Shown here piece after piece: positions 1,402-51,866 of a stretch of 64,000 bases of DNA. The translations under genes and the position numbers were made by a program. Positions within the stretch are counted from its first letter, which is position 1. Each line of letters begins with the position of its first letter. The DNA is from Bacteroidota bacterium (lineage in GTDB: Bacteria > Bacteroidota > Bacteroidia > 2-12-FULL-35-15), in the NCBI GenBank assembly GCA_016722565.1, contig JADKIU010000007.1, positions 9,531 through 73,530 of the forward strand. The letters are read 5' to 3'. The notes under the pieces were generated by a model. That model worked only from the letters and a program-made list of their open reading frames with translations. It searched no databases and was not told where the DNA came from.

Positions 1402-1550
1402 AGTTAATAATTGAAAACGCTATTCCAACGAATTACGAATTTAATACGAAATGTACGAATTACAAATAATCCAATGTGTGATACAAATTTACTAATTAAA
1501 CATCACACATTCGTTTTTTCATAGATGATTTGTCACGATCGCTATCGGGA

Positions 1551-2509: not shown

Positions 2510-2539
2510 TTTGTCCTTTATAAAAAGTATTTATATTTG
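2510..2539 (+). promoter_or_regulatory. Bacteroidota sigma-A type promoter for tRNA-Val (TTTG-N18-TATATTTG)
   Basis: TTTG at 2510-2513 and TATATTTG at 2532-2539 give a perfect TAnnTTTG -7 box with an 18-nt spacer, ending about 29 nt upstream of the tRNA 5' end. Confidence 0.6.
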
Positions 2540-2567: not shown

Positions 2568-2642
2568 GGGAGCTTAGCTCAGCTGGTTCAGAGCATCTGC
2601 CTTACAAGCAGAGGGTCACTGGTTCGAACCCAGTAGTTCCCA
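2568..2642 (+). tRNA. tRNA-Val (anticodon TAC)
   Basis: Hand-folded cloverleaf. Acceptor GGGAGCT/AGTTCCC, anticodon stem TCTGC/GCAGA with loop CTTACAA, T arm ACTGG-TTCGAAC-CCAGT and discriminator A. No encoded CCA. Confidence 0.9.
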
Positions 2643-3227
2643 CGGAAAATTGAAAAGCCTTACAGAAATGTGAGGCTTTTTTGTTTTTAAATATTTTAGA
2701 ATTTATAATAGTTGTCACGGTTCGTCCCGATAGCCATCGGGACCAGTAGTTCCCACGGAAAATTGAAAAGCCTTACAGAAATGTGAGGCTTTTTTGTTTT
2801 TAAATATTTTAGAATTTATAATAGTTGTCACGGTTCGTCCCGATAGCCATCGGGACCAGTAGTTCCCACGGAAAATTGAAAAGCCTTACAGAAATGTGAG
2901 GCTTTTTTGTTTTTAAATATTTTAGAATTTATAGTAGATGTCACGGTTCGTCCCGATAGCCATCGGGACCAGTAGTTCCCACGGAAAATTGAAAAGCCTT
3001 ACAGAAATGTGAGGCTTTTTTGTTTTTAAATATTTTAGAATTTATAATAGTTGTCTCGGTTCGTCCCGATAGCCATCGGGACCAGTAGTTCACACGGAAA
3101 ATTGAAAAGCCTTACAGAGATGTAAGGCTTTTTTGTTTTTAAATATTTTAGAATTTATAATAGTTGTCTCGGTTCGTCCCGATAGCCATCGGGACCAGTA
3201 GTTCCCACGGAAAATTGAAAAGCCTTA
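2631..3227 (+). repeat. tandem array of a 113-bp unit, 5.3 copies, starting inside the 3' end of tRNA-Val
   Basis: CAGTAGTTC(C/A)CACGGAAAATTG starts at 2631, 2744, 2857, 2970, 3083 and 3196, an exact 113-nt period. Units differ by only a few SNPs. The last unit is truncated at the stop codon of the 3225-4703 ORF. Confidence 0.95.
2657..2682 (+). terminator. intrinsic terminator of tRNA-Val (GCCTTACA-GAAA-TGTGAGGC + T6)
   Basis: 8-bp stem (one G:U pair), 4-nt loop and T-run at 2677-2682. The same cassette is repeated in every unit of the array. Confidence 0.75.
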
Positions 3228-4703
3228 AACTAATGCTAACTTACTACCTAACCAACCTCTAAAATTAAAGTAATATTCAACAGTTTTTTCCATTGGGGTT
3301 TCCAAAAACAATTTATTTAAATCCAAATGTAATTGTGAAAACAATTTAGCAACATCGTTTTTTGTATCTAATTTACCTGCTTTCCGAATAAATTTTAATA
3401 AAAGGGTTTCTGTTTCATAATTACGTTTATTTCTGAGTAATATGCGATATGTAGAACGCAAGGCAGATTCAAGCCCTTCAATATTTTCACGTTCAAAGTA
3501 AATAATAATACTTAAAATGCGAGCAAAAATAAGTTCTTCTACTTCTACATCAGCCAAGTCAATAACTTGATTCACATATCGCAGTGCCGCACGAAAATCA
3601 CCCAAACCAAAATGAGCAACTGCAACTGCATACAAAATATTAATTAAGCCCTTTTTAGAAATGCGTTTTTGCAAAATGGAAAATCTTTTATCCTTAGTAA
3701 ATACAGCTAGTGCTTCAGCATGATTATCGTTGAGATTGTGATAAGAAATCTCTGCATGCAGAGCTGTTTCGTAAATCAATAATTCAACGGGGCTCATTTT
3801 CGGTGAAATCAATTTTTTATATTCATTTAAGTACTTTGTAAAATCAGGAAAGTGTTTATTCCGTAAGCACAATTGTAGATAATGACCAACTTCCACGTAA
3901 TACGTTTTTTCGGCTTTAGAAACATTATATTGCTCCAATTTCTCAACAAGATCTTTGCGGATATAATAAAACGCCTTTGTAATATCGCCTATAGCATTAT
4001 AATAATCACTCATCGCTTGGTTGTACATTCCTAAGGCAATTCGAGAAAGGATATGTTTCTCTTGCCACTTCATCATTGGCCGAATATTTTTATCTAAAAT
4101 TTTTTTCTCATCGGGGGTACGAGCATAATTCTTGGTTCTTAGAAATAATTTTTGATTGTACAATATATCTCCTGCTAACGAGTAATTTTCAATAATTTTC
4201 AAAATCTCAAGTCGCTCGCGAGCAAGAGATATTGTTGGATTATAGGACACCGTTATTTTGGAAAATAAAATAACAATTATTTCTTCCGTAATAATATAAT
4301 AAAGTCGCATGTACAAACCATTAGCGTATGCGAACTGCTTACAATGTTGCAAAAGTTCAGCTGCATCGCTATATAAACCTTTCTGACGAAGAATTTTATA
4401 CGTTTCCAACTCATCATTTAGCTCGGATTCATAATCTTTATATGAACTATATGCTTTAAGTGCTGCAATTATCTGGGCATAGAGATACGATTTAATCATC
4501 GAAAAATTTGAACTATTCCTCGAATCACAAAATTTATTTTGCAATGCTTTTTCATTATACACTTTCTGTTTATCGATTGCATTAAACAGTAAGATGTATA
4601 GCTTTTCTTTCTTCCCATGCAAACCCGCAAAAAGTTTGAAATAACGTTTTTCGGCAGGAGTTAAACTTTTTACTAAATTAAAAAGTGATGTTTTATTACC
4701 CAT
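3225..4703 (-). CDS. hypothetical all-helical, TPR-like protein, cytoplasmic
   Basis: 492-aa ORF with no signal peptide. It is rich in Y/A/L helical repeat-like segments. The N-terminus LTPAEKRYFKLFAG faintly resembles a LuxR-type HTH start. Function is unknown. Confidence 0.6.
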   Translation of the reverse strand: MGNKTSLFNLVKSLTPAEKRYFKLFAGLHGKKEKLYILLFNAIDKQKVYNEKALQNKFCDSRNSSNFSMIKSYLYAQIIAALKAYSSYKDYESELNDELETYKILRQKGLYSDAAELLQHCKQFAYANGLYMRLYYIITEEIIVILFSKITVSYNPTISLARERLEILKIIENYSLAGDILYNQKLFLRTKNYARTPDEKKILDKNIRPMMKWQEKHILSRIALGMYNQAMSDYYNAIGDITKAFYYIRKDLVEKLEQYNVSKAEKTYYVEVGHYLQLCLRNKHFPDFTKYLNEYKKLISPKMSPVELLIYETALHAEISYHNLNDNHAEALAVFTKDKRFSILQKRISKKGLINILYAVAVAHFGLGDFRAALRYVNQVIDLADVEVEELIFARILSIIIYFERENIEGLESALRSTYRILLRNKRNYETETLLLKFIRKAGKLDTKNDVAKLFSQLHLDLNKLFLETPMEKTVEYYFNFRGWLGSKLALV

Positions 4704-4848
4704 CAGGAATTTATTTATTTATTGTGTAATTAACTGTTTATCAAAACTATAAAAAATTATGATACATTAAGAGAACTGACTTTAAAATAGTTATTTGTTT
4801 TTTAGTTGTCTTGCTATAAACGTACTTCGCAACATCAAAATCAAACAA

Positions 4849-5592
4849 ATGATTAAACAACCGTTTTTCAAAATCAATGTAATTGTTTTATTGTGTGCTA
4901 CTTGTGGATTTAATCTAATGGCACAAGAAGAAAAAACAAATCGATTTGCTTTTGGTATAGATGCTGGAACAACAGTTTGTCGTATCTACACCAAAGTAAA
5001 ACCAGGTTTTACGCTCGAAAATGGGCCAGATAAAAACCAACAACCTAAACTAGGTTTTTATGCAGGTGCGGTTGCTACTTTCAAAATTAAAAAAAGGCTA
5101 AAACTTATTTCAAGCATTAGCTACTTGCAAAACACTTATAGCTATGAGCAACCAAACGGTTTTTATTTAAAACCAGATAGCTCCTACGCAGCTATGCATA
5201 CTAAAGCTAAAGAAGTAATGAACAGTTTACTTTTACTTTCAGACGCACGTTACCACTTTAGTACCAATACATCCTCCTTCTTTTTACAAGCTGGCGGGGC
5301 TGCCGGGTATTATACAGGAAGTAAACAACACTATGCTTCATACCTAGATGAAGATGAAAGCTTACTTAACGAAAAGGAAATTAAAGGCCGCTACTCCACT
5401 TTTAATAGCTGGAATTACTACTTGCGTATAGGAAGCGGATATAGCCTAAAACTAAGCAAATCATTGGTTGCAACATTACAACTAAATGGAAATTTTGCTT
5501 TACGTAATATTCTTTCAGATAAAGTAGCATTTAATGCCAATCACAAAATTCATTTTATTCAAACAGGTTTACAAATTACTTATATACTTTAA
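4849..5592 (+). CDS. outer-membrane beta-barrel (porin-family) protein
   Basis: I prefer the ATG at 4849 (MIKQPFFKINVIVLLCATCGFNLMAQ signal peptide) over the TTG at 4795. The sequence has alternating hydrophobic beta-strand-like patterns and many G/Y/S residues. Confidence 0.6.
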   Translation: MIKQPFFKINVIVLLCATCGFNLMAQEEKTNRFAFGIDAGTTVCRIYTKVKPGFTLENGPDKNQQPKLGFYAGAVATFKIKKRLKLISSISYLQNTYSYEQPNGFYLKPDSSYAAMHTKAKEVMNSLLLLSDARYHFSTNTSSFFLQAGGAAGYYTGSKQHYASYLDEDESLLNEKEIKGRYSTFNSWNYYLRIGSGYSLKLSKSLVATLQLNGNFALRNILSDKVAFNANHKIHFIQTGLQITYIL

Positions 5593-5595
5593 AAT

Positions 5596-7020
5596 ATGAA
5601 ACAGTTACACTTAGTATTCTTGATTTTGCTTATAGGACTTTGCATGTGTTTAAGCAGTTGTAGAAAAGAAACAGATGCACAAGAAACAATACAAAACGCA
5701 TTATTGGAAGCTCATTATCAAGGTAAGGCATGGAGATTGCGCACATTTTTAAGATATAATGAGATGGAATTAAAACCTTTTCATTGGGAAACGCCTTTAA
5801 CTACTTCAGTTAATGGTATAACTTTAGGTTACGGGCCGTCTGAAAAACGTTTTTTAGCTCGCGTTACATCATCCAATCCAAAAATTCATTTAGAACGAAA
5901 AATTGAAGCGGACATCAACAATTGCAATAATGGTGATTACTTAGTAAACGACATTTCCCCTGTTGCCCTATATGATGGGCAAAATGAACCAGAAGCGATA
6001 AATGATTTTATTTATTTATCGATTCAGAATCCAAATTTATCGATTTATAATCAAAATATGCGATACTCAAAGCGAAAATGGATGCAAGGTGATATCGTTT
6101 CAGATTCATCACACTTTTATTTGGAAGAGTTAATTTTTTTACCCAACGGTGAGTTTGAAAAATACATATTTGATGACTCAGCAGATGTGGTAAATTGTAC
6201 ACCAATAAAAATAACAGGCACCTGGATTTTTAATACCCCTTTTGCAACAACAGTTACCTATAATACTTATGAAAGCGAAATTATTCTAAACTATACAACC
6301 TCAACAGGTGCCAATGCGGAATCTGGACGTTATACCATTAAGTTGAATGATTTGGGGGATATTGACATTTATAAAAGCAGCGCAACAAAAAGCGAACGAA
6401 AAATTTGCGATTTAAGATTAGTATCATTCTTTTCAGAGTACATAGAACAGGTTGAATATAATGAAACGATGAACCGCTATTTCGGTAGAGTAATTAAATA
6501 TATTAAAAATTTTTGCGGATTTGCAAATACAGACGATATGATAGTGCTGTACGATGAATTGTTCGTGGAGAAAATACTGAGCTCATATAATAAATCAAAT
6601 TATGAATTAAATGATAGAATTTGCAGTAATACAGTCACTCAACCACCTCCAACTGGAATTTGCCCGGAATTTTGTGATGAATATACACCTTGCGGAAATC
6701 GTACATCATATATCACCGATGTTGATGAAATTCAAATTGGGGGCTCCTTTATTTCAAACTGCAGTGTTTCGGCAGATAGTTCGCTATTTACAGTTTCCAA
6801 TTTTGCAAACCTTGGTGGTTCACTTCAAATTAACTTAAGCAACTATTTTTGGGATATGTGCCACGACTTTGTCGGATTTACAACAACTATTAATGGGCAC
6901 ACAGTTAATTATCAAAGCATTGTTTCGGAGGCACAAAATCCTGTTAATAGTAACAACCCTTGCATATTAATAAACGCAATTATTGATGGCAATACCCGAA
7001 AAATATATATGAACTATTAA
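5596..7020 (+). CDS. hypothetical lipoprotein
   Basis: Signal peptide with a lipobox (LCMCLSSC). It starts 3 nt after the upstream gene. There is a Cys-rich stretch near residue 350. No recognisable family. Confidence 0.6.
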   Translation: MKQLHLVFLILLIGLCMCLSSCRKETDAQETIQNALLEAHYQGKAWRLRTFLRYNEMELKPFHWETPLTTSVNGITLGYGPSEKRFLARVTSSNPKIHLERKIEADINNCNNGDYLVNDISPVALYDGQNEPEAINDFIYLSIQNPNLSIYNQNMRYSKRKWMQGDIVSDSSHFYLEELIFLPNGEFEKYIFDDSADVVNCTPIKITGTWIFNTPFATTVTYNTYESEIILNYTTSTGANAESGRYTIKLNDLGDIDIYKSSATKSERKICDLRLVSFFSEYIEQVEYNETMNRYFGRVIKYIKNFCGFANTDDMIVLYDELFVEKILSSYNKSNYELNDRICSNTVTQPPPTGICPEFCDEYTPCGNRTSYITDVDEIQIGGSFISNCSVSADSSLFTVSNFANLGGSLQINLSNYFWDMCHDFVGFTTTINGHTVNYQSIVSEAQNPVNSNNPCILINAIIDGNTRKIYMNY

Positions 7021-7038
7021 TCTTCAAAAACAATCTAT

Positions 7039-8874
7039 ATGAAAAAAATATTAATTCTTTTAATCGCATTTGCTGTCATATCTGCAAAAGCGCAAACCAC
7101 AAGTCGTCCAATAGGAACTAATATTGATGAAGTAACCTATTATTCGACACAACTTATGTTTAAAAACTGCTTTTTACAGAGTTCGTACTGGTTTACCACA
7201 GATACTACAATGTTATTTAGTACTTGGAATACAGCTACTAATATTCCTATGCGTCCAGATGGTTACCCTACTCACGTACCTTATTTAGATAGTAGCAGCC
7301 AGTGGTCGTTAGTGCATACACTCATATTACGAAACATTGGTGGATATTATCCTAGCGGAAACTATTACATCTTTTGGGAAGGTACAGGTCGGGTGTCATT
7401 AGAATTTGATAGCGGTAATCATACATTTACACTATCGGGGGGCTCCTTTGCAGTAACCGCTCCCAGTCAAAATGGAATACATGTGATAATTCGTAATTCG
7501 CAGTTAAGCGACCCTATTCATAATATTCGTATTGTACATCAAAACGATTTGCCTACTTATCTATCCCAACCTTTTAATGATACATTAATGAGTTTTCTTT
7601 CCGATTTCTCATGCTTGCGATTTATGTGGCCAATGGAACCTATGAGTGCTGCTCTTGTAAATTGGAATGACCGCACGCGTGCAGATAATTTTACGCAAGC
7701 GAATACGAGTCGCGGAATTGCATATGAATACATTATTCAAATGGCAAATCTTTTACAAAAAGATGTATGGATTTGTGTGCCACACAGAGCAAATGATGCG
7801 TTTATTGATTCATTAGCTAATCTTTTTGAAAATACACTTAATCCTAGTCTTAAAGTATATGTTGAATACGGAAATGAATTATGGAATTCAATTTATTCGC
7901 AACAGGAAAATTACATACAACAACAAGGCAACACACTTGGTTACCCAGGCCCACTATGGGAAAAAGGTTGGCTTTTTGGAGCTAAACGTGCTGTCGATTG
8001 TCATCGCATTTTTGAAAATCATTTTGGCATTAACTCTCCTCGTGTTGTTAAAGTGTTAGCAGGTTTTACAACAATACCCTGGCTTTCTGGGTTTTTATTA
8101 AATGCCTATAACAACACTGCATATAACCCCAGCGGAGTAACAGTTAATGCATTCGCCATTGCGCCCTATTTTGGTGGTTGGGTAGCTGATGCAATTGGAA
8201 ATGCTGGTCAAATAGATAGTATTACAGTGCCTCAAATTGTTGATTCCCTCTACAAAAGCATTCGTTATACTGAAACATCACCAGATATGAATGGGCAAGT
8301 TGCTGCGACATCAGCTTTTGGAATTCCGCTAATTTGTTATGAAGATGGTCAACACCTTGTTTCAAATCTATACCAAAACGACACTACTTTAACCAATAAA
8401 TTAATTGCAACAAATGCTGATCCTCTTATGGAACAAGTGATGTGCGAATATCTTGATTCGGTATACACCATCAATCCTGGAAACTTGTTTGTTTATTACT
8501 CTAGTATAAATTATCCAAGTCAATACGGCAGTTGGGGTATGAAGGCAAGTTTATATCACACTGATGCTCAATCACCGAAATATCGTGCAATTAAAAACTG
8601 TGTATTAAGTTACGGTATTCCTACCAATATTCCTGAAACGACAACCAATACTAATATTGTTGTTTTTCCAAATCCAGCAACAGACTATATACAACTTCAA
8701 AGTACTGAACAAATCAAATCTATAGAAATAATGAATGCTATGGGACAAAAAGTATATACTACTGTGACTAAATCAAATCAAATTGATTGCTCTAAGTTTA
8801 CAAATGGAATTTATTTCATCGCAATTGAAACAGAAAAGTCAAAATTGATAAAAAAATTCATTATAAATAAATAA
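7039..8874 (+). CDS. secreted clan GH-A-like glycoside hydrolase candidate with T9SS type-A C-terminal domain
   Basis: Signal peptide. VYVEYGNELWN (an NE acid/base-like motif) and ICYEDGQH (possible nucleophile). The C-terminus VVFPNPATDYIQLQ...GIYFIAIETEKSKLIKKFIINK matches the Por/T9SS sorting-domain pattern. Confidence 0.55.
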   Translation: MKKILILLIAFAVISAKAQTTSRPIGTNIDEVTYYSTQLMFKNCFLQSSYWFTTDTTMLFSTWNTATNIPMRPDGYPTHVPYLDSSSQWSLVHTLILRNIGGYYPSGNYYIFWEGTGRVSLEFDSGNHTFTLSGGSFAVTAPSQNGIHVIIRNSQLSDPIHNIRIVHQNDLPTYLSQPFNDTLMSFLSDFSCLRFMWPMEPMSAALVNWNDRTRADNFTQANTSRGIAYEYIIQMANLLQKDVWICVPHRANDAFIDSLANLFENTLNPSLKVYVEYGNELWNSIYSQQENYIQQQGNTLGYPGPLWEKGWLFGAKRAVDCHRIFENHFGINSPRVVKVLAGFTTIPWLSGFLLNAYNNTAYNPSGVTVNAFAIAPYFGGWVADAIGNAGQIDSITVPQIVDSLYKSIRYTETSPDMNGQVAATSAFGIPLICYEDGQHLVSNLYQNDTTLTNKLIATNADPLMEQVMCEYLDSVYTINPGNLFVYYSSINYPSQYGSWGMKASLYHTDAQSPKYRAIKNCVLSYGIPTNIPETTTNTNIVVFPNPATDYIQLQSTEQIKSIEIMNAMGQKVYTTVTKSNQIDCSKFTNGIYFIAIETEKSKLIKKFIINK

Positions 8875-8877
8875 ACG

Positions 8878-10389
8878 ATGTCAAAAATAAAAATGATTTT
8901 TCTGCTCCTATTTATAGCAGATACAATGAGTGCTTTAAATAGATATGTGACTGTAAGTGGTTCAGGAAGCATGAATGGAACTAGCTGGTCGAATGCATAT
9001 CCAGGCGCATCCTTACAAAACGCAATTAATTTATCCAATACAGGTGACGAAGTATGGGTTTCAAACGGAATTTATTATCCTACAACATCCGTTTCACGAA
9101 CAGCTTCCTTTAATCTAAAAAACGGAGTGATACTTTATGGAGGATTTGTTGGAACAGAAATTCTTTTATCACAAAGAAATTTAGCAACGGCATTTCAAAG
9201 TATTTTATCAGGTAATATTGGAACAGCTGCGTATTCTGACAACAGTTATCATATTATTTACAATACTGGATTAAACAACACTGCTGTTATTGATGGTTTT
9301 GTAATTACAGATGGAAACGCGAATGGTGCTAGCGGGAGCATCGATGAAGGCGGTGCAGGCATTTATAATTTCGGAGGATTTGGAGGCACCTGCAATCCAA
9401 CCATACGAAATTGCATTTTTAGAAATCATACAGCAACTTACGGTGCGGCTATTTTTGATCACGGCTCTAATGGTGGAAATGCCAGTCCAACCATTTCACA
9501 TTGCATTTTCGAAAACAATGTTGCAACTGGAGCTGCAGGTGCAATCGACAATTATGGTTATTCGGGAAATGCTAGTCCGCAAATTATCAATTGCATCTTT
9601 GTAAATAACTCAGCAACACTAACAGGTGGTGCAATTCATTGTTGGGGCGGTGGTGCAGGAAATGCCAGTCCGTTTATAAACGCTTGTACTTTTTTTAACA
9701 ATACTGCTAATGTCGGTGGTGGTGCGGTGGTAGCTGACAATCAAAACACGGATGTTGGATTTTCCGGTAATGCTTCCATTGTTTTATTGAATTGTATTTT
9801 ATACGGGAATGCAGCGCCTACTGGCCCCCAATTCTATATTATTGGAACAGCCACTATAAACGCAACATTTTCAAACATTGATGTAACCGGGCAAACCACT
9901 CCACATGTATTATCAGGGGCAGGCACAGGAAATTTAACCAGTGTTCCGTCATTTTTGAATCCATCAGATATGGATGGAGCTGACAACATTTATAGAACTT
10001 CGGATGACGGTTTAGTTTTATTAAGCTCTTCTTTAAATATAAATAGCGGAAATAACACCAGTGCCCCAGCAGTTGATTTAAAATTTATACCAAGAATTGT
10101 TGCAAGCACAATAGATATTGGAGCATATGAAACCACTATAACTACCTCAGTAGAAAAAGAAAACAAAACACTTCTTTTTGAGATTTTTCCTAACCCCACA
10201 CATTCAAACTGTACACTTAATATTGATGATGCTATACCACATATTTTACAAATTTATGACATGCAAGGTACTTTACTAAATGAATTAGAAATTAACCAAA
10301 AGCAAATACTAAATCTTGATATTTACCCTAAAGGTGTTTACCTAATAGTAATTGATAAGAAATTTTACAACCGTATTATTAAGATATAG
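8878..10389 (+). CDS. right-handed parallel beta-helix repeat protein with T9SS type-A C-terminal domain
   Basis: Repeated N-C-I-F-x-N-N-x-A-x-x-G-G-A rungs (IRNCIFRNHTA, ISHCIFENNVA, IINCIFVNNSA, INACTFFNNTA, LLNCILYGNAA). C-terminus FEIFPNPTHSNCTLNI...GVYLIVIDKKFYNRIIKI. Confidence 0.7.
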   Translation: MSKIKMIFLLLFIADTMSALNRYVTVSGSGSMNGTSWSNAYPGASLQNAINLSNTGDEVWVSNGIYYPTTSVSRTASFNLKNGVILYGGFVGTEILLSQRNLATAFQSILSGNIGTAAYSDNSYHIIYNTGLNNTAVIDGFVITDGNANGASGSIDEGGAGIYNFGGFGGTCNPTIRNCIFRNHTATYGAAIFDHGSNGGNASPTISHCIFENNVATGAAGAIDNYGYSGNASPQIINCIFVNNSATLTGGAIHCWGGGAGNASPFINACTFFNNTANVGGGAVVADNQNTDVGFSGNASIVLLNCILYGNAAPTGPQFYIIGTATINATFSNIDVTGQTTPHVLSGAGTGNLTSVPSFLNPSDMDGADNIYRTSDDGLVLLSSSLNINSGNNTSAPAVDLKFIPRIVASTIDIGAYETTITTSVEKENKTLLFEIFPNPTHSNCTLNIDDAIPHILQIYDMQGTLLNELEINQKQILNLDIYPKGVYLIVIDKKFYNRIIKI

Positions 10390-10565
10390 TATTCTAAATA
10401 ATAAACCGTTTTTACCTACATAAGATAAATAAGTTACATGGTGTATGTAAATTCTGACGATAAATACTTTCCTTTTGAAGGAAATATACTACTGCTAAGA
10501 TATAAGGATTAAACGAAATTCGGCAAACTATGTTTCAAATCAAACCGTTGCTAAGCTAAACGTTA

Positions 10566-10680
10566 TTAAATATTTTATAATTTATAGTAGATGTCACGGT
10601 TCGTCCCGATATCCATCGGGACCAGTAGTTCCTAAGGAAAATTGAAAATCCTTACAGAAATGTAAGGCTTTTTGTTTTTG
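10566..10680 (+). repeat. solo copy of the 113-bp array unit (AT-rich part, interrupted T-arm-like hairpin, acceptor-like tail, terminator)
   Basis: TTAAATATTTTATAATTTATAGTAGATGTCACGGTTCGTCCCGATATCCATCGGGACCAGTAGTTCCTAAGGAAAATTGAAAATCCTTACAGAAATGTAAGGCTTTTTG aligns along its length with array units, and is closest to the unit at 2921-3033. Confidence 0.9.
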
Positions 10681-14258: not shown

Positions 14259-14699
14259 ATGAACCTAACTGATTTTACAACAACAATCGTAGTTGAGCAA
14301 AGTCCAAAGGACGTTTTTCATGCAATCAATAATCCTGCAGGATGGTGGCAAGGAGAAATAAAAGGCCCTACAGCGAATGTCAATGATGAGTTTACGTATG
14401 AGATGGCACCCTTCCATTTTTCAAGACAGAAAGTGGTGGAATTAATTCCAAACAAAAAAGTAGTATGGTTGGTGACGGAGAGTAAGCTTAGTTTTACGAA
14501 TGATCCAAGCGAATGGACGGGAACAAAAATTTGTTTTGAAATTTCAGAAGTAAACAATAAAACTGAAATCCATTTGACACATTTGGGTTTGAATTCAAAA
14601 GTTGAATGTTATACCGATTGCTCCAACGGTTGGACAGCATTGATTCAAAAAAGTTTGTTGAGCTTTATTACAACAGGCAAAGGCCAGAAGGTATTTTAA
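14259..14699 (+). CDS. SRPBCC (AHSA1/START-like) domain protein
   Basis: 146 aa. The layout (ITVEQSPKDVFHAINNPAGWW ... GWTALIQKSL) is typical of Aha1-like SRPBCC proteins that sit next to HxlR/DinB genes. Confidence 0.65.
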   Translation: MNLTDFTTTIVVEQSPKDVFHAINNPAGWWQGEIKGPTANVNDEFTYEMAPFHFSRQKVVELIPNKKVVWLVTESKLSFTNDPSEWTGTKICFEISEVNNKTEIHLTHLGLNSKVECYTDCSNGWTALIQKSLLSFITTGKGQKVF

Positions 14700-14701
14700 T
14701 G

Positions 14702-14738
14702 AAAAAAGCCTTACAGTGATGTAAGGCTTTTTTGTTTT
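14702..14738 (+). terminator. intrinsic terminator, same cassette family as the tRNA-Val terminator
   Basis: GCCTTACA(14708-14715)-GTGA-TGTAAGGC(14720-14727), then TTTTTTGTTTTAAATA. It is flanked by an A-run, so it may act in both directions. Confidence 0.75.
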
Positions 14739-14835
14739 AAATAGAAAAACAATTCACTTTTTAATTGAATATTACCAAATTCAACAAACTTTCACATAAA
14801 ATTTATTAGAAATTTAATATTTAGAGTTTCTTAAA

Positions 14836-16032: not shown

Positions 16033-16422
16033 TTTATATGGTTAGATTAATTTTTTATTCTTGTTTAGATTTACAAACACTCTTAAAGACATTTGTATAC
16101 AATAGGAGATTTTGTTTGAAAATAAGTTAATGCACTTAAAAGCATAAGAAAAACAAAAAGAAGGTTGTTGTTCATTTCATGTTGCGTTTAAGATAGAGCT
16201 AATATAAGAATTTATCTTTTCTTTAGAACTATCTTACGAAGGAGAAATTTGGTTTCAATTTATTATTAACTCATATAAAACAGATTTTTAAACTCATCAA
16301 AATAGGTTATCCTGAAGGCAAAAATACAATATGCCGAACGTTTGCCCTTAAAAAAAGCATTCTAAAACCAAAAGCCCTACATCAAATTAATATTCGTTTG
16401 CTAATTTCTCAGAAAATTTTAC

Positions 16423-16456
16423 AAAAAAAAGCCTTACATCGCTGTAAGGCTTTTTT
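16423..16456. terminator. bidirectional intrinsic terminator, same cassette family
   Basis: A8 run, then GCCTTACA(16431-16438)-TCGC-TGTAAGGC(16443-16450), then T6 GTTTT. It lies 25 nt past the stop of the minus-strand gene 16481-17440. Confidence 0.75.
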
Positions 16457-16480
16457 GTTTTAACATTTATAGCTAACTAT

Positions 16481-47478: not shown

Positions 47479-47627
47479 GGATGAAATTAAACACGTTTCA
47501 TTTCTTAAATATAACAATAAAAAGAATTCATTTTTTTGCCAACCACAAATTTGGACAGATAAGGGGGCAGCCCCCTTGTTTGGATGTTTTTGAAAATTGA
47601 AATTTGTTCTACGTAAACTCTTCGACC

Positions 47628-50600
47628 ATGAAACGAATTCAAAAAATTTTATTATTAGTATTTGGACTATTTTTTTGCATTGTATTGAATGCACAAACAT
47701 TCACCTGGGTAGGCTATCCAAGTAATGGAGCTACTTGGAATCCTTCTGCTACTTTCAACATGACCATGTCAACAGCAGGCGGAGGGTCGAAAGATGTGCG
47801 CGCTAGTACAGCAGGTGGTACTTCTCCTATTTCTGGTACTGCGGGTAATATTGCTCAAAATTGTTCGCCTTACACTGGTTTACGTTTAGAAATGAGTGGA
47901 GCCGGAAATGGCGCAGGGACTGCAGTTTGGAACAACAGCATCACTGTTACAATAACATTCCCTACTCCACTTTGTGCTCCTGTTACGTTTAACATTTATG
48001 ATGTTACTGAAACATTTTACAACGATGGCTCTTTAAATTATGTAAACTATCAAGATAAAGTTAGCATTTCAGCTACCGACAATTTAGCAGCTGCTGTTTT
48101 GCCAACAGCAACCACCACTGGACCAATAGACAACACCGTTGTTGGAAGCTCCAGAGTTTTAATTGCAAACGGAATAAATGGACAATGTGCAAACCAAGCA
48201 ATTTCTGTTGGAGTTGCCGGACAACGAATTTCAACGATTACAATTGTGTATTCAAATCAAGATATTCCAACACATTGTCCGCCACCCAGTGTATCGCCAT
48301 ATCGTTATGGGATATCACAATACCAATACATTTTTATTTCACCCATCACCGGAACAGCTGCACCAACAGCATCCATAGCAGCAGGAGCAATTCCTTGCGG
48401 ATCAACTACCACAACATTAACAGCAACAACCTCTGCTGGTTCACCAACGTATTCGTGGGCAGGACCAGGTGGTTCAACAATTGTTTCACCCACTGCGGCA
48501 AGCACATCCGTTACCGGAGCTGGAACATATACAGTGACCATCAATCCTGGAAGTTGCAGCTCTACTGCCACATATACTGTTGCAGCAAGTGGAACGCCAC
48601 CGAATGTTTCAGCAACCGCTGCACAAACCGTTACCTGTAGTTCACCTACTATCTCTGCATCTTCATCCAGTTCACCGGTCTCTTTCAGCTGGGCAGGAGC
48701 TGGAATTTCAGGTGGTGGAGGAACAGCAACACCAACTATTACAACATCGGGAACTTACACTGTTACCGTTACGAATACAAGTTCAGGATGTACCAGCACA
48801 GCAACTGTTGTTGCAACTATGAACACCACTCCACCAACAGTTAGCTCAGCAAGCAGTAACAATATCAATTGCACAACAACTACCGCAACATTAACAGGAA
48901 CAAGTGCAGGAAGTACAATGGTGTGGAACGGAGGAACCTTGAGTAATGCAGCAAATCCAGCATCTGTAAGCGCTGCAGGAACATATACCGTTACTGCAAC
49001 AAATCCTGCGAACGGATGTACTTCAACTTCTACTGTGACCATTACCGGAAACACCACTCCGCCAACTGTATCTTCATCCAGCTCTGGAAATTTAACATGT
49101 ACAACACTGAGTTCAACATTAACAGGAACAGGGTCCGGAACAATGGTGTGGAATGGTGGTGCATTAAGCAATGCTGCTAATCCTGCCTCCGTAAGTGCTG
49201 CAGGAACGTATACCGTTACTTCTACAAATGCATCCAATGGATGTACTGCTACATCTACAGTAACAATTAATAGCAATACAACACCTCCAACAGTTTCTTC
49301 CGCTTCCTCCGGAAATTTAACATGTACTGCGTTAACAGCTACATTAACAGGAACCAGCTTAGGAAGCACGATGGTATGGAATGGTGGTTCTCTTGTGAAT
49401 GCATCAAATCCTGCAACTGTGAGTGCAATCGGAACATATACTGTGACATCAACAAGTTTAGTAAACGGTTGCACGAATACATCAACAGTTACCATCACCT
49501 CTAATACAACTCCGCCAACAGTTAGTTCAGCAAGTAGCAACAATATTAATTGTACAACCACAACAGCAACATTAACCGGAACAAGTGCGGGAAGCACAAT
49601 GGTTTGGAATGGTGGAGCATTAAGTAATGCTGCTAATCCTGCAACAGTGAGTGCTGCCGGAACATATACGGTTACGGCAACAAATCCTGCAAACGGATGT
49701 ACAGCCACATCAACAGTAACCATTACATCGAGCGGTACTGTTCCAAATATTAGTATTGCATCCCCTTCACAACTAACTTGCACCACAACCAGCGTAACAT
49801 TAACAGGAAGCTCAACAACTCCGGGTGCAACGTACCAATGGACAAGCGGTCCGGGTACTGCAACCTATCCGGTATCTTCTGGAGCAACGTATACATTAAC
49901 CGTTACTGACCCGAGCAATGGTTGTACTTCAACGCAAACTGTTTCCGTTTCTAGCAATACAACTCCTCCAACAGTTTCATCTGCAACATCAGGAAATATT
50001 ACCTGTACAGCATCAAGTGTTACATTAACAGGAACAAGTGCAGGAACAATGGTATGGAATGGCGGAGCGTTAAGTAATGCTTCAAATCCGGCAGCAGTAA
50101 GTACAGCAGGCACCTACACTGTAACTTCAACAGATGCAGCAAATGGCTGTACATCTACTTCAACAGTAACCGTATCTACCAATACCATTCCTCCAACCGT
50201 ATCTGCAGCAAGCAGCAACAACATTGATTGTATCTCTGCAAGTGCAACACTTACCGGAACAAGTGCCGGCAGCACCATGGTGTGGAATGGCGGAAGTTTA
50301 ATCAATGCTGCAAACCCCGCTACAGTTGGCGCGGCAGGCACATACACCGTAACAGCAACAAATACAACAAATGGTTGTACTGCAACTTCAACAGTAACCG
50401 TAACTGCTTCAGGTGCATTACCCAATATCAGCATTGCTAGTCCGAGCGACATTACGTGCACAACCTCTTCCGTTACTTTAACAGGAAGCTCAACAACTCC
50501 TGGTGTAAGTTATCAATGGACTGGTGGTCCGGCTACACCAACAAATACAGTTAGTACAGCAGGAACATATACGTTAACCATTACTGATTTAGGAACAGGA

Positions 50601-51866
50601 TGTGCATCACAACAAACAGTTACAGTAACTAATAATACAACTCCACCAACAGCAACATCAGGAACACCATTAACATTGGGATGCACAACAACGAGTGGAA
50701 CAATCAGCGCAAGTTCAACAACTGTTGGTGCAACCTATAGCTGGAGTGGAACAGGTATTACAGCCGGAGGTACCAGCTCCTCGCCAACTGTAAATGCTGC
50801 AGGAACATACACTGTAACGATTACTGACCCTGCAAACGGATGCACTGCTAGTACAACTGTAACCGTAACAAGTAACACTACCTCTCCAAATGTAACAGCG
50901 GGCAGCACATTAACATTGGATTGTATTACTACTTCAGGTTCAATCACAGCAAGTTCAACAACAAGTGGTGCAACATATAACTGGGCTGGAACAGGAATTA
51001 CTTCAGGTGGAACAACTGCCTCGCCAACCGTAAATGCAGCAGGAACATATACCGTAACCATTACCGATCCTGCAAATGGTTGTACCACTACAACAACTGT
51101 AACTGTAACGAATACAAGTGTTCCACCAACTGTTACCGCAATTGCATCATCAACGATCAGTTGCACATCGGGAATAGCAAGTATAAATGCGAGTTCAACA
51201 ACCAGTGGAGTAACTTTTAGTTGGTCTGGTCCTGGTATTGTCTCCGGAGGCACTACCACTACCCCAACAGTAAATTTACCTGGCACATATACTGTAACCG
51301 CAACAAATCCGGCAAACGGATGTACCGCCACTACAACTGTAGTTGTTACAAACAGTGTGGGCCCAATTGCAAGTGCAGGAACAGATATTACGATTAGTTC
51401 AGGAACATCAACCACTTTAACAGCGAGCGGTGGAGGAAGCTATGTTTGGTCAACAGGAGCTACCACAAATGCAATTGTTGTAACGCCAACAGCTACAACC
51501 GACTACTGTGTAACCGTAACAGATACCAACGGATGTGCAGATACAGCATGCGTGCGCATCACGATCGAAAGTCCTTGTCCGGGTGCAAACGATTTAAAAG
51601 TACCAAATGCATATTCACCAAATGGTGATGGGCACAATGATAAAATTTGTTTGCAAGGCTGGAATGATTGTGTAACGGATTTCACAATTTCTATCTATGA
51701 TCGCTGGGGAGAAAAGGTATTTGAATCAGAAGATCCTGCATTTTGTTGGGATGGAATATTCAAAGGTAAAATGTTAGACCCTGCAGTATTTGTGTATTAC
51801 ATCACAGCCAAATTACCGAACGAAGAAAAAATTGCTAAAAAAGGAAACATCTCATTGATGCGTTAA
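47628..51866 (+). CDS. giant repeat-containing cell-surface protein (adhesin-like) with T9SS type-B (gliding-motility-associated) C-terminal domain
   Basis: ATG at 47628 gives MKRIQKILLLVFGLFFCIVLNAQ. It has about 13 tandem two-Cys modules of about 75-85 aa (…C..T..TLTG.S...T..W.GG......NPA.V..AGTYTVT.T...NGCT.T.TVTVT.NTTPPTV). C-terminus VPNAYSPNGDGHNDK...ISIYDRWGEKVFE...WDG...G......VYYI. Confidence 0.9.
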   Translation: MKRIQKILLLVFGLFFCIVLNAQTFTWVGYPSNGATWNPSATFNMTMSTAGGGSKDVRASTAGGTSPISGTAGNIAQNCSPYTGLRLEMSGAGNGAGTAVWNNSITVTITFPTPLCAPVTFNIYDVTETFYNDGSLNYVNYQDKVSISATDNLAAAVLPTATTTGPIDNTVVGSSRVLIANGINGQCANQAISVGVAGQRISTITIVYSNQDIPTHCPPPSVSPYRYGISQYQYIFISPITGTAAPTASIAAGAIPCGSTTTTLTATTSAGSPTYSWAGPGGSTIVSPTAASTSVTGAGTYTVTINPGSCSSTATYTVAASGTPPNVSATAAQTVTCSSPTISASSSSSPVSFSWAGAGISGGGGTATPTITTSGTYTVTVTNTSSGCTSTATVVATMNTTPPTVSSASSNNINCTTTTATLTGTSAGSTMVWNGGTLSNAANPASVSAAGTYTVTATNPANGCTSTSTVTITGNTTPPTVSSSSSGNLTCTTLSSTLTGTGSGTMVWNGGALSNAANPASVSAAGTYTVTSTNASNGCTATSTVTINSNTTPPTVSSASSGNLTCTALTATLTGTSLGSTMVWNGGSLVNASNPATVSAIGTYTVTSTSLVNGCTNTSTVTITSNTTPPTVSSASSNNINCTTTTATLTGTSAGSTMVWNGGALSNAANPATVSAAGTYTVTATNPANGCTATSTVTITSSGTVPNISIASPSQLTCTTTSVTLTGSSTTPGATYQWTSGPGTATYPVSSGATYTLTVTDPSNGCTSTQTVSVSSNTTPPTVSSATSGNITCTASSVTLTGTSAGTMVWNGGALSNASNPAAVSTAGTYTVTSTDAANGCTSTSTVTVSTNTIPPTVSAASSNNIDCISASATLTGTSAGSTMVWNGGSLINAANPATVGAAGTYTVTATNTTNGCTATSTVTVTASGALPNISIASPSDITCTTSSVTLTGSSTTPGVSYQWTGGPATPTNTVSTAGTYTLTITDLGTGCASQQTVTVTNNTTPPTATSGTPLTLGCTTTSGTISASSTTVGATYSWSGTGITAGGTSSSPTVNAAGTYTVTITDPANGCTASTTVTVTSNTTSPNVTAGSTLTLDCITTSGSITASSTTSGATYNWAGTGITSGGTTASPTVNAAGTYTVTITDPANGCTTTTTVTVTNTSVPPTVTAIASSTISCTSGIASINASSTTSGVTFSWSGPGIVSGGTTTTPTVNLPGTYTVTATNPANGCTATTTVVVTNSVGPIASAGTDITISSGTSTTLTASGGGSYVWSTGATTNAIVVTPTATTDYCVTVTDTNGCADTACVRITIESPCPGANDLKVPNAYSPNGDGHNDKICLQGWNDCVTDFTISIYDRWGEKVFESEDPAFCWDGIFKGKMLDPAVFVYYITAKLPNEEKIAKKGNISLMR

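Follow-up and report, generated by a model that had tools for sequence, protein, structure and literature searches.

We examined a window of 64,000 nucleotides (nt) from a Bacteroidota bacterium (contig JADKIU010000007.1, assembly GCA_016722565.1; all positions given below are those of this window), in which a functional tRNA-Val(TAC) gene runs into a head-to-tail array of a 113-nt unit. A diverged solo copy of the unit lies at 10.6 kb, and the array and the solo copy enclose a variable segment of 7.3 kb. Each full unit carries the tail of the tRNA gene, a terminator, a spacer and an 18-nt palindrome that we also find dispersed through the phylum. On the layout of the locus and its counterparts in relatives, we judge it reasonably probable that the array is a variable-number tandem repeat descended from a single scar of the tRNA-Val(TAC) tail, most likely with no function of its own.

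Tandem Repeats Finder reports the array (2630-3227) as 5.3 copies with a period of 113, 98% matches and a score of 1147. Together with 38-mer counts, this bears out a first-pass annotation of the same DNA, made from the sequence alone, which had placed a 113-nt tandem array after tRNA-Val and a solo copy at 10.6 kb. The repeats are not exact, contrary to that annotation: seven substitutions occur among the units (2934, 2938, 3056, 3092, 3119, 3124 and 3169), and the core CCAGTAGTTCCCAC begins one base before the starts given there, at 2630, 2743, 2856, 2969, 3082 and 3195. The array begins inside the T-arm of tRNA-Val, so that unit 1 opens with the final 14 nt of the tRNA. A 38-mer made up of GGTTCG, the hairpin and CCAGTAGTTCCCAC occurs five times in the array and once at 10598-10635, with none expected in shuffled sequence.

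A full unit comprises, in order, the last 14 nt of the tRNA, GGAAAATTG, a terminator hairpin with its T-run, an AT-rich spacer of about 30 nt, the segment GTCACGGTTCG, which is a decayed T-arm 5' strand, and the 18-nt hairpin TCCCGATAGCCATCGGGA. The locus as a whole reads as the tRNA 5' part, n copies of tail, terminator, spacer and T-arm 5' strand with palindrome, and finally a tRNA tail. Alignment to tRNA-Val in the form GTCAC(T)GGTTCG-(AAC replaced by 18 nt)-CCAGT upholds the proposed colinearity of unit and tRNA, with 18 nt in place of AAC in the T-loop. A terminator-like hairpin and T-run are present in every full unit, as had been claimed, and the terminator carries an A-run on its 5' side as well as the T-run on its 3' side, so that it could act in both directions. 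At the end of the last unit the triplet TTA (3225-3227) is, as previously stated, the stop codon (TAA on the minus strand) of an open reading frame (ORF) of 492 amino acids (aa). Neither ARAGORN nor the Rfam tRNA model calls any unit as a tRNA, both detecting only the gene at 2568-2643. The array is not of CRISPR type, as the whole 113 nt repeat and there are no variable spacers.

The tRNA gene has its own promoter. A TTTG element with a -7 box is taken as the promoter consensus of Bacteroidota, and the sequence ahead of tRNA-Val is a full match to this -33/-7 motif; the same motif precedes tRNA-Val in the loci L008, L004 and L040 and tRNA-Asn in L091. The octamer GCCTTACA of the terminator stem does also occur in the anticodon arm of tRNA-Val (2599-2606), as the first-pass annotation observed, but the link is not specific to the tRNA. 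GCCTTACA has 13 matches in the window against 1.3 expected, and two unrelated terminators, at 14.7 and 16.4 kb, use it as their stem. These two terminators (14693-14740 and 16416-16463) reuse the stem AAGCCTTACA/TGTAAGGCTT with differing loops, and the tRNA-Val terminator of L209 has this stem too. The sharing of one stem by several terminators indicates a recurrent terminator hairpin family.

Copy number, which we compared across strains as had been suggested, appears to differ among near-identical ones. L004, whose methyltransferase gene is 96% identical and whose flanks are near-identical, carries the tRNA, one unit and a partial unit before the 492-aa ORF, or 1.3 units; L030, near-identical in the flank and in the end of the 492-aa ORF, carries 2.3 after the tRNA; the window carries 5.3. 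As short-read assemblies may collapse arrays, the values of 1.3 and 2.3 are minima, and unit-specific substitutions back the assembled paths. In L002, with an identical methyltransferase gene, the contig breaks inside the array after two units. Further out, L008 (methyltransferase 72% identical) has an identical tRNA, a different terminator and no unit, and L209 (TonB-type receptor 80% identical) has the same tRNA and a homologous terminator, again with no unit. A variable copy number and the absence of the unit from relatives with the same tRNA mark it as apparently recent and lineage-specific, its number still changing.

The far boundary of the variable segment repeats the 3' part of the tRNA, in the form of the solo unit with CCAGTAGTTCCTAA and a complete terminator. 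This unit is 92% identical to those of the array, its palindrome (10604-10621) has the centre ATCC, and it lies about 60 nt ahead of the conserved upstream region of a TonB-type receptor gene. On the receptor side L209 is the only informative relative; there the stretch from tRNA to receptor gene measures 2.8 kb and holds ORFs of 75 aa and 380 aa and AbiH. On the methyltransferase side no empty site is found, the relatives at 72-78% identity carrying a PKD/CHU_C gene rather than the tRNA. Judging from this comparison, tRNA-Val and the TonB-type receptor gene enclose a variable island whose boundary is the solo copy.

All units of the window, the solo one included, and those of L004, L030 and L001 have the missing T in GTCAC-GG and the position of the palindrome in common. 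One insertion and one deletion shared in this way indicate amplified copies of a single scar, not five separate integrations. At 3250-3345 of L030, the tRNA-Val lacks its 5' half, with unrelated sequence abutting the anticodon stem and no tRNA called by ARAGORN; this is either a rearrangement or a chimeric assembly.

The 18-nt palindrome outside the array

The hairpin had been described as a feature of the units. A decayed copy, however, follows the methyltransferase gene of the window outside any tRNA context, and the element recurs across the phylum. The decayed copy is kept in L002, L003 and L004 and is absent at this site in L005, L008 and L009, relatives at 72-78% identity. The family has the form TCCCGAT-NNNN-ATCGGGA, with a perfect form TCCCGATAGCTATCGGGA and an invariant core CCGATAGCTATCGG. 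An exact search with TCCCGATAGCTATCGGGA in one genome per species returns at least 120 matches, where by our own estimate about 9 would be expected by chance in 596 Gb. Among the matches listed, 79 of 80 loci are named as Bacteroidota and span several orders, with the identical palindrome in genomes named Flavobacterium, Chitinophaga, Algoriphagus, Mucilaginibacter, Bacteroidales and Saprospiraceae; it is also found in 46 viral-contig stretches. Few of the 80 listed loci involve tRNA genes, a GIY-YIG ORF being present at 2 and a nearby tRNA at about 5.

The copies favour intergenic positions (among the matches listed, 20 of 85 lie in long open frames, which cover 82% of the bases). Flanks that lengthen the inverted repeat are in excess, which places the palindrome in the loop of a larger hairpin, and so are flanking direct repeats of 5-11 nt. 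The latter could be target duplications of about 10-11 nt or could reflect a preference for such repeats. Palindromes within simple direct repeats (GAAAGAT, TCACGACTCAC, TAATTAG and CGATTTCG) are seen among the loci L043-L122, for example in L052, L060, L107 and L074.

In 26 of 27 pairs of pseudo-tRNA and tRNA, the palindrome replaces exactly 3 nt of the T-loop or D-loop. Palindromes are also nested, up to three deep (L022 at 112-135 and 545-568, L199 at about 8149, L193 at about 2660 and L071 at 465-493), and in L022, L199 and L071 the inner palindrome stands in place of 3 nt of the outer. Half of the variants with two changes are symmetric, against roughly 3% expected by our own estimate, and the centre is AGCT, which is unable to pair, in 209 of 247 copies. 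Symmetric variants that include an unpairable centre suggest that what is recognised or synthesised is double-stranded DNA and not an RNA stem. Exchange of 3 nt for 18 would imply a conserved, sequence-specific and structure-guided DNA process, of which we found no description.

For this element we found no Rfam family, no listing in a survey of REP sequences (PMC6006769) and no paper that gives its sequence. It resembles REP and REPIN sequences, the partners of RAYT (PMC3116915, PMC2817692, PMC6006769), in being short, dispersed and biased to intergenic DNA, and in lying often just after stop codons or within other hairpins. It differs from them in being perfect and in lacking a GT[AG]G or CGTC foot, it is absent from the REP tables of the survey cited, and it is identical across several orders of one phylum rather than species-specific and replaces exactly 3 nt. 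A motif search of 1.56 Mb of loci yields one RAYT-like ORF, in L052, which is not flanked by the palindrome. This HUH/Y1-type ORF (L052, 997-1692) contains in frame a perfect palindrome of 40 nt, GTTGTTGTAGATTCGTTTCATGAAACGAATCTACAACAAC, of a different family. Palindromic DNA in structured targets, RNA genes included, is familiar from the Rickettsia palindromic elements and from IS1397, which inserts into REP loops. Those are elements of about 100-150 bp, or full insertion sequences with target duplications, whereas here 18 nt replace 3.

Two other candidates were rejected. The palindrome is not the half-site of a longer insertion sequence, solo half-sites being only decayed or nested copies, and it is unrelated to the Bacteroidetes SOS operators (GGA-N5-TCC and CTAA-N5-TTAG).

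Equivalent units and GIY-YIG genes at other tRNAs

A scan of metagenomes for the palindrome hairpin in a T-loop context returned 33 loci, picked by the T-loop/palindrome pattern alone. In most of them the matching true tRNA, which is Val-GAC, Val-TAC, Phe-GAA, Pro or Leu, lies no more than a few hundred bases away, and 16 of the 33 contain a GIY-YIG ORF. Complete examples encode 90 and 96 aa and consist of the catalytic domain only. Neither these genes, carried by equivalent units elsewhere, nor the phylum-wide spread of the palindrome could be seen by the first-pass annotation.

In L017, tRNA-Val(TAC) and a terminator are followed by a 90-aa GIY-YIG ORF and by a pseudo-tRNA whose T-loop holds the palindrome; tRNA tail, terminator and the first 57 nt of the ORF are then repeated, giving 1.3 copies of a 364-nt unit. 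Two units of 430 nt, each a pseudo-tRNA with GIY-YIG and 100% identical to one another, stand ahead of the true tRNA in L041, and L012 carries a full-length pseudo-tRNA with palindromes in both D-loop and T-loop, then a GIY-YIG ORF, then the true tRNA. Other arrays have units that lack the ORF, namely units of 143 nt following tRNA-Val(TAC) in L039 and L040 and units of 78 nt following tRNA-Leu and GIY-YIG in L019; the same layout occurs at tRNA-Phe in L026. Among isolates, Flagellimonas crocea DH64 (L091, NZ_JAUZVX010000005.1, 4320-4790) presents in succession a tRNA-Asn promoter, a 5' pseudo-fragment with a D-loop palindrome, a GIY-YIG gene and an intact tRNA-Asn, so that the nuclease gene seems to lie within the transcription unit of the tRNA.

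One such cassette is found beside a unit of the window's own kind. L001 (contig ERZ27258469 k141_610696) has the identical 492-aa ORF and a GIY-YIG cassette adjoining a unit: at 4320-4671 GIY-YIG is followed by the pseudo T-arm and acceptor end of another tRNA (…CCCTGTATCTCCCACCA), directly before the unit terminator. Here a different perfect palindrome of 14 nt, TCCGCCGCGGCGGA, takes the place of GTT in the pseudo T-loop, which is again an exchange of 3 nt.

Bacteroidota contain hundreds of small genes that are annotated as 'GIY-YIG nuclease' with no role assigned, and their systematic location, flanked by a live and a dead copy of the same tRNA, provides a testable idea of their nature. In annotation, tRNA fragments that contain this palindrome are to be read as scars and not as genes. 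We see the main lead in the palindrome and the GIY-YIG/tRNA cassettes. The interest of the array is modest and lies in its use as a strain marker and in the assembly breaks that it causes.

The free-standing GIY-YIG homing endonuclease SegB of phage T4 sits in a tRNA gene cluster (PMC2330249), and our literature search on GIY-YIG proteins with pseudo-tRNAs found nothing relevant beyond it. The two cases share a small GIY-YIG gene among or inside tRNA genes, and a flanking tRNA could serve as homology for copying. The Bacteroidota proteins differ from SegB in comprising only the catalytic domain and in the position of their genes, with a live copy of one tRNA on one side and a dead copy on the other; the window has no such gene.

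Origin of the array

These observations favour, with fair probability, the view that the array is a by-product of DNA turnover at tRNA-Val and not a set of genes. In the first of four putative steps, suggested by the layout, DNA would have entered the tRNA gene in its T-loop region, bringing along its own tRNA 3' end and terminator. The tRNA would thereby have stayed intact, and the displaced T-arm and 3' end would have become a non-functional copy. Elsewhere such a layout often carries a small GIY-YIG gene; here only the spacer of about 30 nt is left. In a second step, the one that comparison shows, the dispersed 18-bp palindrome took the place of AAC in the T-loop of this dead copy, as in many other pseudo-tRNAs. 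The tRNA tail recurs in its copy as a direct repeat of 33 nt, 113 nt apart, and in a third step unequal recombination or replication slippage between repeats may have changed the size of the array. Finally, the 7.3-kb segment may have separated one further copy, the solo unit, which diverged because exchange with the array had ended.

The spacer of the units differs from the sequence that follows the terminator at the solo unit and in L209, which marks it as foreign to the original locus. Two histories fit the arrangement: an element bearing an attP-like site may have integrated and left beside the tRNA a scar that then expanded, or the array may have come first, the 7.3-kb segment landing in one terminator and removing about 24 nt. 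As a working-looking terminator ends each unit, transcripts started at the tRNA promoter probably end at the first of them, and the units beyond it are probably mostly silent.

Several points weigh against a neutral repeat grown from one scar. The junction of terminator and spacer in the unit is not derivable from a simple single-crossover integration, and at least one extra event is needed. Neither the units of the window nor the 7.3-kb segment contain a GIY-YIG gene, an integrase or a recognisable remnant of one. The independent arrays at several tRNAs could reflect a function or some active process instead of neutral slippage, and the units may be expressed. Lastly, the counts for L004 and L030 come from short-read metagenome assemblies, which are able to collapse 113-nt repeats.

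The variable-number repeat from a single scar has counterparts among known systems. Bacterial minisatellites likewise consist of head-to-tail copies, here 98% identical, with a copy number that appears to vary between close strains, and they likewise break short-read assemblies; the present unit differs in joining a tRNA tail, a terminator and a dispersed palindrome, and in having arisen independently at several tRNAs. As in genomic islands at tRNA genes (attL/attR), a variable segment carries the tRNA 3' part again at its far end, the boundary falls in the T-arm and a spare 3' end keeps the tRNA intact. The window departs from such islands in that it has no integrase, in that the repeat spans the whole terminator and spacer and is amplified in tandem, and in that a palindrome interrupts the T-loop of every copy. 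The neutral satellite considered at the outset was half right: the array appears to be a variable-number repeat, but one probably grown from the scar of an insertion in a tRNA gene.

A wider proposal, which we consider somewhat less likely than not, would make the array the footprint of two agents. The palindrome would be an undescribed, phylum-wide mobile or protein-targeted element that exchanges 3 nt for 18 in hairpin loops next to one stem strand, and the solitary GIY-YIG genes would represent homing-type elements of tRNA genes in miniature, equipped with a spare tRNA part; jointly the two would remodel the tRNA loci of Bacteroidota and leave arrays behind. Both the movement of the palindrome and the cutting of tRNA genes by GIY-YIG proteins are what we infer.

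We think it unlikely that the units are stacked attachment (att) sites left by repeated integration and excision at the tRNA-Val 3' end, with the 7.3-kb segment as the last island and the solo unit as its far att site. The array does start in the T-arm, reportedly a classic crossover site for integrases that target tRNA genes. The segment between tRNA and receptor gene differs between relatives, the solo unit adjoins the conserved flank of the receptor gene, and the last partial unit and the solo unit resemble one attP-type site cut open. Against this, a 113-bp unit cannot be an element, and one palindrome insertion and one deletion in all units bespeak amplification from one copy. Viral contigs do not carry the tRNA-Val end as attP, the single match lying in a coding region, and the Pfam scan of all ORFs from 1 to 14 kb detects no integrase or recombinase, in agreement with the first-pass annotation. 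What survives of the att-scar idea is the insertion of DNA with a spare 3' end into the tRNA gene and the variable island; the separate integrations do not.

It is equally improbable that the array is being actively made, by a solitary GIY-YIG nuclease, encoded elsewhere in the genome, that cuts the intact tRNA gene, with units gained or lost through out-of-register repair from the sister and the palindrome shielding the dead T-loops. GIY-YIG ORFs within equivalent units at many tRNAs, some of them in tandem, argue for such a process, as do the cassette next to a unit in L001 and T4 SegB. The palindrome, moreover, occupies the T-loop of every dead copy and never that of a live tRNA. Yet tblastn finds no GIY-YIG match anywhere in the 64-kb window, and no cleavage site is known for the proteins of 90-96 aa with their catalytic domain only. 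The palindrome lies mostly away from tRNAs and GIY-YIG genes, as the listed matches show, and its presence in dead tRNAs may merely reflect tolerance of insertion.

That each unit is a self-contained small-RNA gene, the array forming a dosage family that mimics the tRNA 3' end, is very improbable: a strong terminator does close each unit, the units are nearly identical, similar arrays recur at other tRNAs and the unit folds better than shuffled sequence (z = -3.95), but the fold signal stems from the terminator and the generic dispersed palindrome. The promoter-like box TATAATAG agrees with the Bacteroidota -7 motif at 4 of its 6 fixed positions, as first reported; the role of the box as a promoter falls away, the box reading CTTGTAGATG in L004. 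Copies appear to range from 1.3 to 5.3, and some relatives that have the tRNA lack the unit. A varying copy number and a weak, unconserved box indicate a variable-number repeat and not a gene family.

Compensatory stem changes, which the first-pass annotation had named as a sign of a structured RNA, are not seen among the unit copies; these show loop changes or one uncompensated stem change, ATCAGGA in L030. Symmetric variants exist in the wider palindrome family, but they include the unpairable centre. Conservation of the hairpin is then attributable to membership in that family and not to selection on the unit. Because the membership fixes the stem, the covariance model of the unit that had been proposed would merely recover the dispersed palindrome. 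No Rfam family reaches its threshold, the best being BTnc231 with 28 bits against the 80.4 needed, a match that rests on the terminator. An E-value scan of positions 1-14 kb of the window and of 12 related loci with Rfam otherwise returns only true tRNAs and spurious microRNA matches, with nothing at the palindrome in the 12 loci.

Variable segment and flanking features

Besides the TPR-like ORF that adjoins the array, the variable segment contains an outer-membrane beta-barrel protein, a 474-aa ORF and two proteins with type IX secretion tails. Its GC content is 0.31-0.40, against 0.35-0.39 outside.

Features of the tRNA-Val locus, in window positions
Feature	Position	Strand	Basis or remark
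Decayed palindrome TCACGATCGCTATCGGGA	1533-1550		directly after methyltransferase stop codon, outside tRNA context
tRNA promoter, TTTG (2510-2513) and TATATTTG (2532-2539)	2510-2539	+	read from sequence
tRNA-Val(TAC), functional	2568-2643	+	ARAGORN; Rfam tRNA model, 69.8 bits
Unit 1	2630-2742	+	
tRNA terminator	2652-2681	+	hairpin scan, fold
Palindrome copy TCCCGAT-AGCC-ATCGGGA	2725-2742		replaces T-loop AAC
Unit 2	2743-2855	+	
Terminator repeats in array	2765-2794, 2878-2907, 2991-3020, 3104-3133	+	
Further array palindrome copies	2838-2855, 2951-2968, 3064-3081, 3177-3194		
Unit 3	2856-2968	+	spacer variant TATAGTAGATG, common to solo copy and L004
Unit 4	2969-3081	+	variant GTCTCGG
Unit 5	3082-3194	+	variants TTCACAC, GAGATGTAAGG and GTCTCGG
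Partial unit 6	3195-3227	+	core and GGAAAATTGAAAAGCCTTA; ends in stop codon of 492-aa ORF
492-aa ORF, weak TPR matches	3225-4703	-	first gene of variable segment, converges on array
Variable segment between array and solo unit	3228-10561		Pfam scan
Solo unit	10562-10679	+	spacer, GTCACGGTTCG, palindrome, CCAGTAGTTCCTAA, complete terminator

Two further features lie away from the array. A long imperfect hairpin with 33-nt arms that are 88% complementary occupies positions 17-111, just downstream of a cobalamin adenosyltransferase gene, and it yields spurious microRNA matches in Rfam. Toward the other end, a 1420-aa ORF (47604-51866) contains tandem repeats of about 228 nt, which Tandem Repeats Finder reports as 3.8 copies at 71% identity (48873-49726), with diverged copies extending to about 51.4 kb; we assume that this ORF corresponds to the PKD/CHU_C adhesin gene found next to the methyltransferase gene in relatives.

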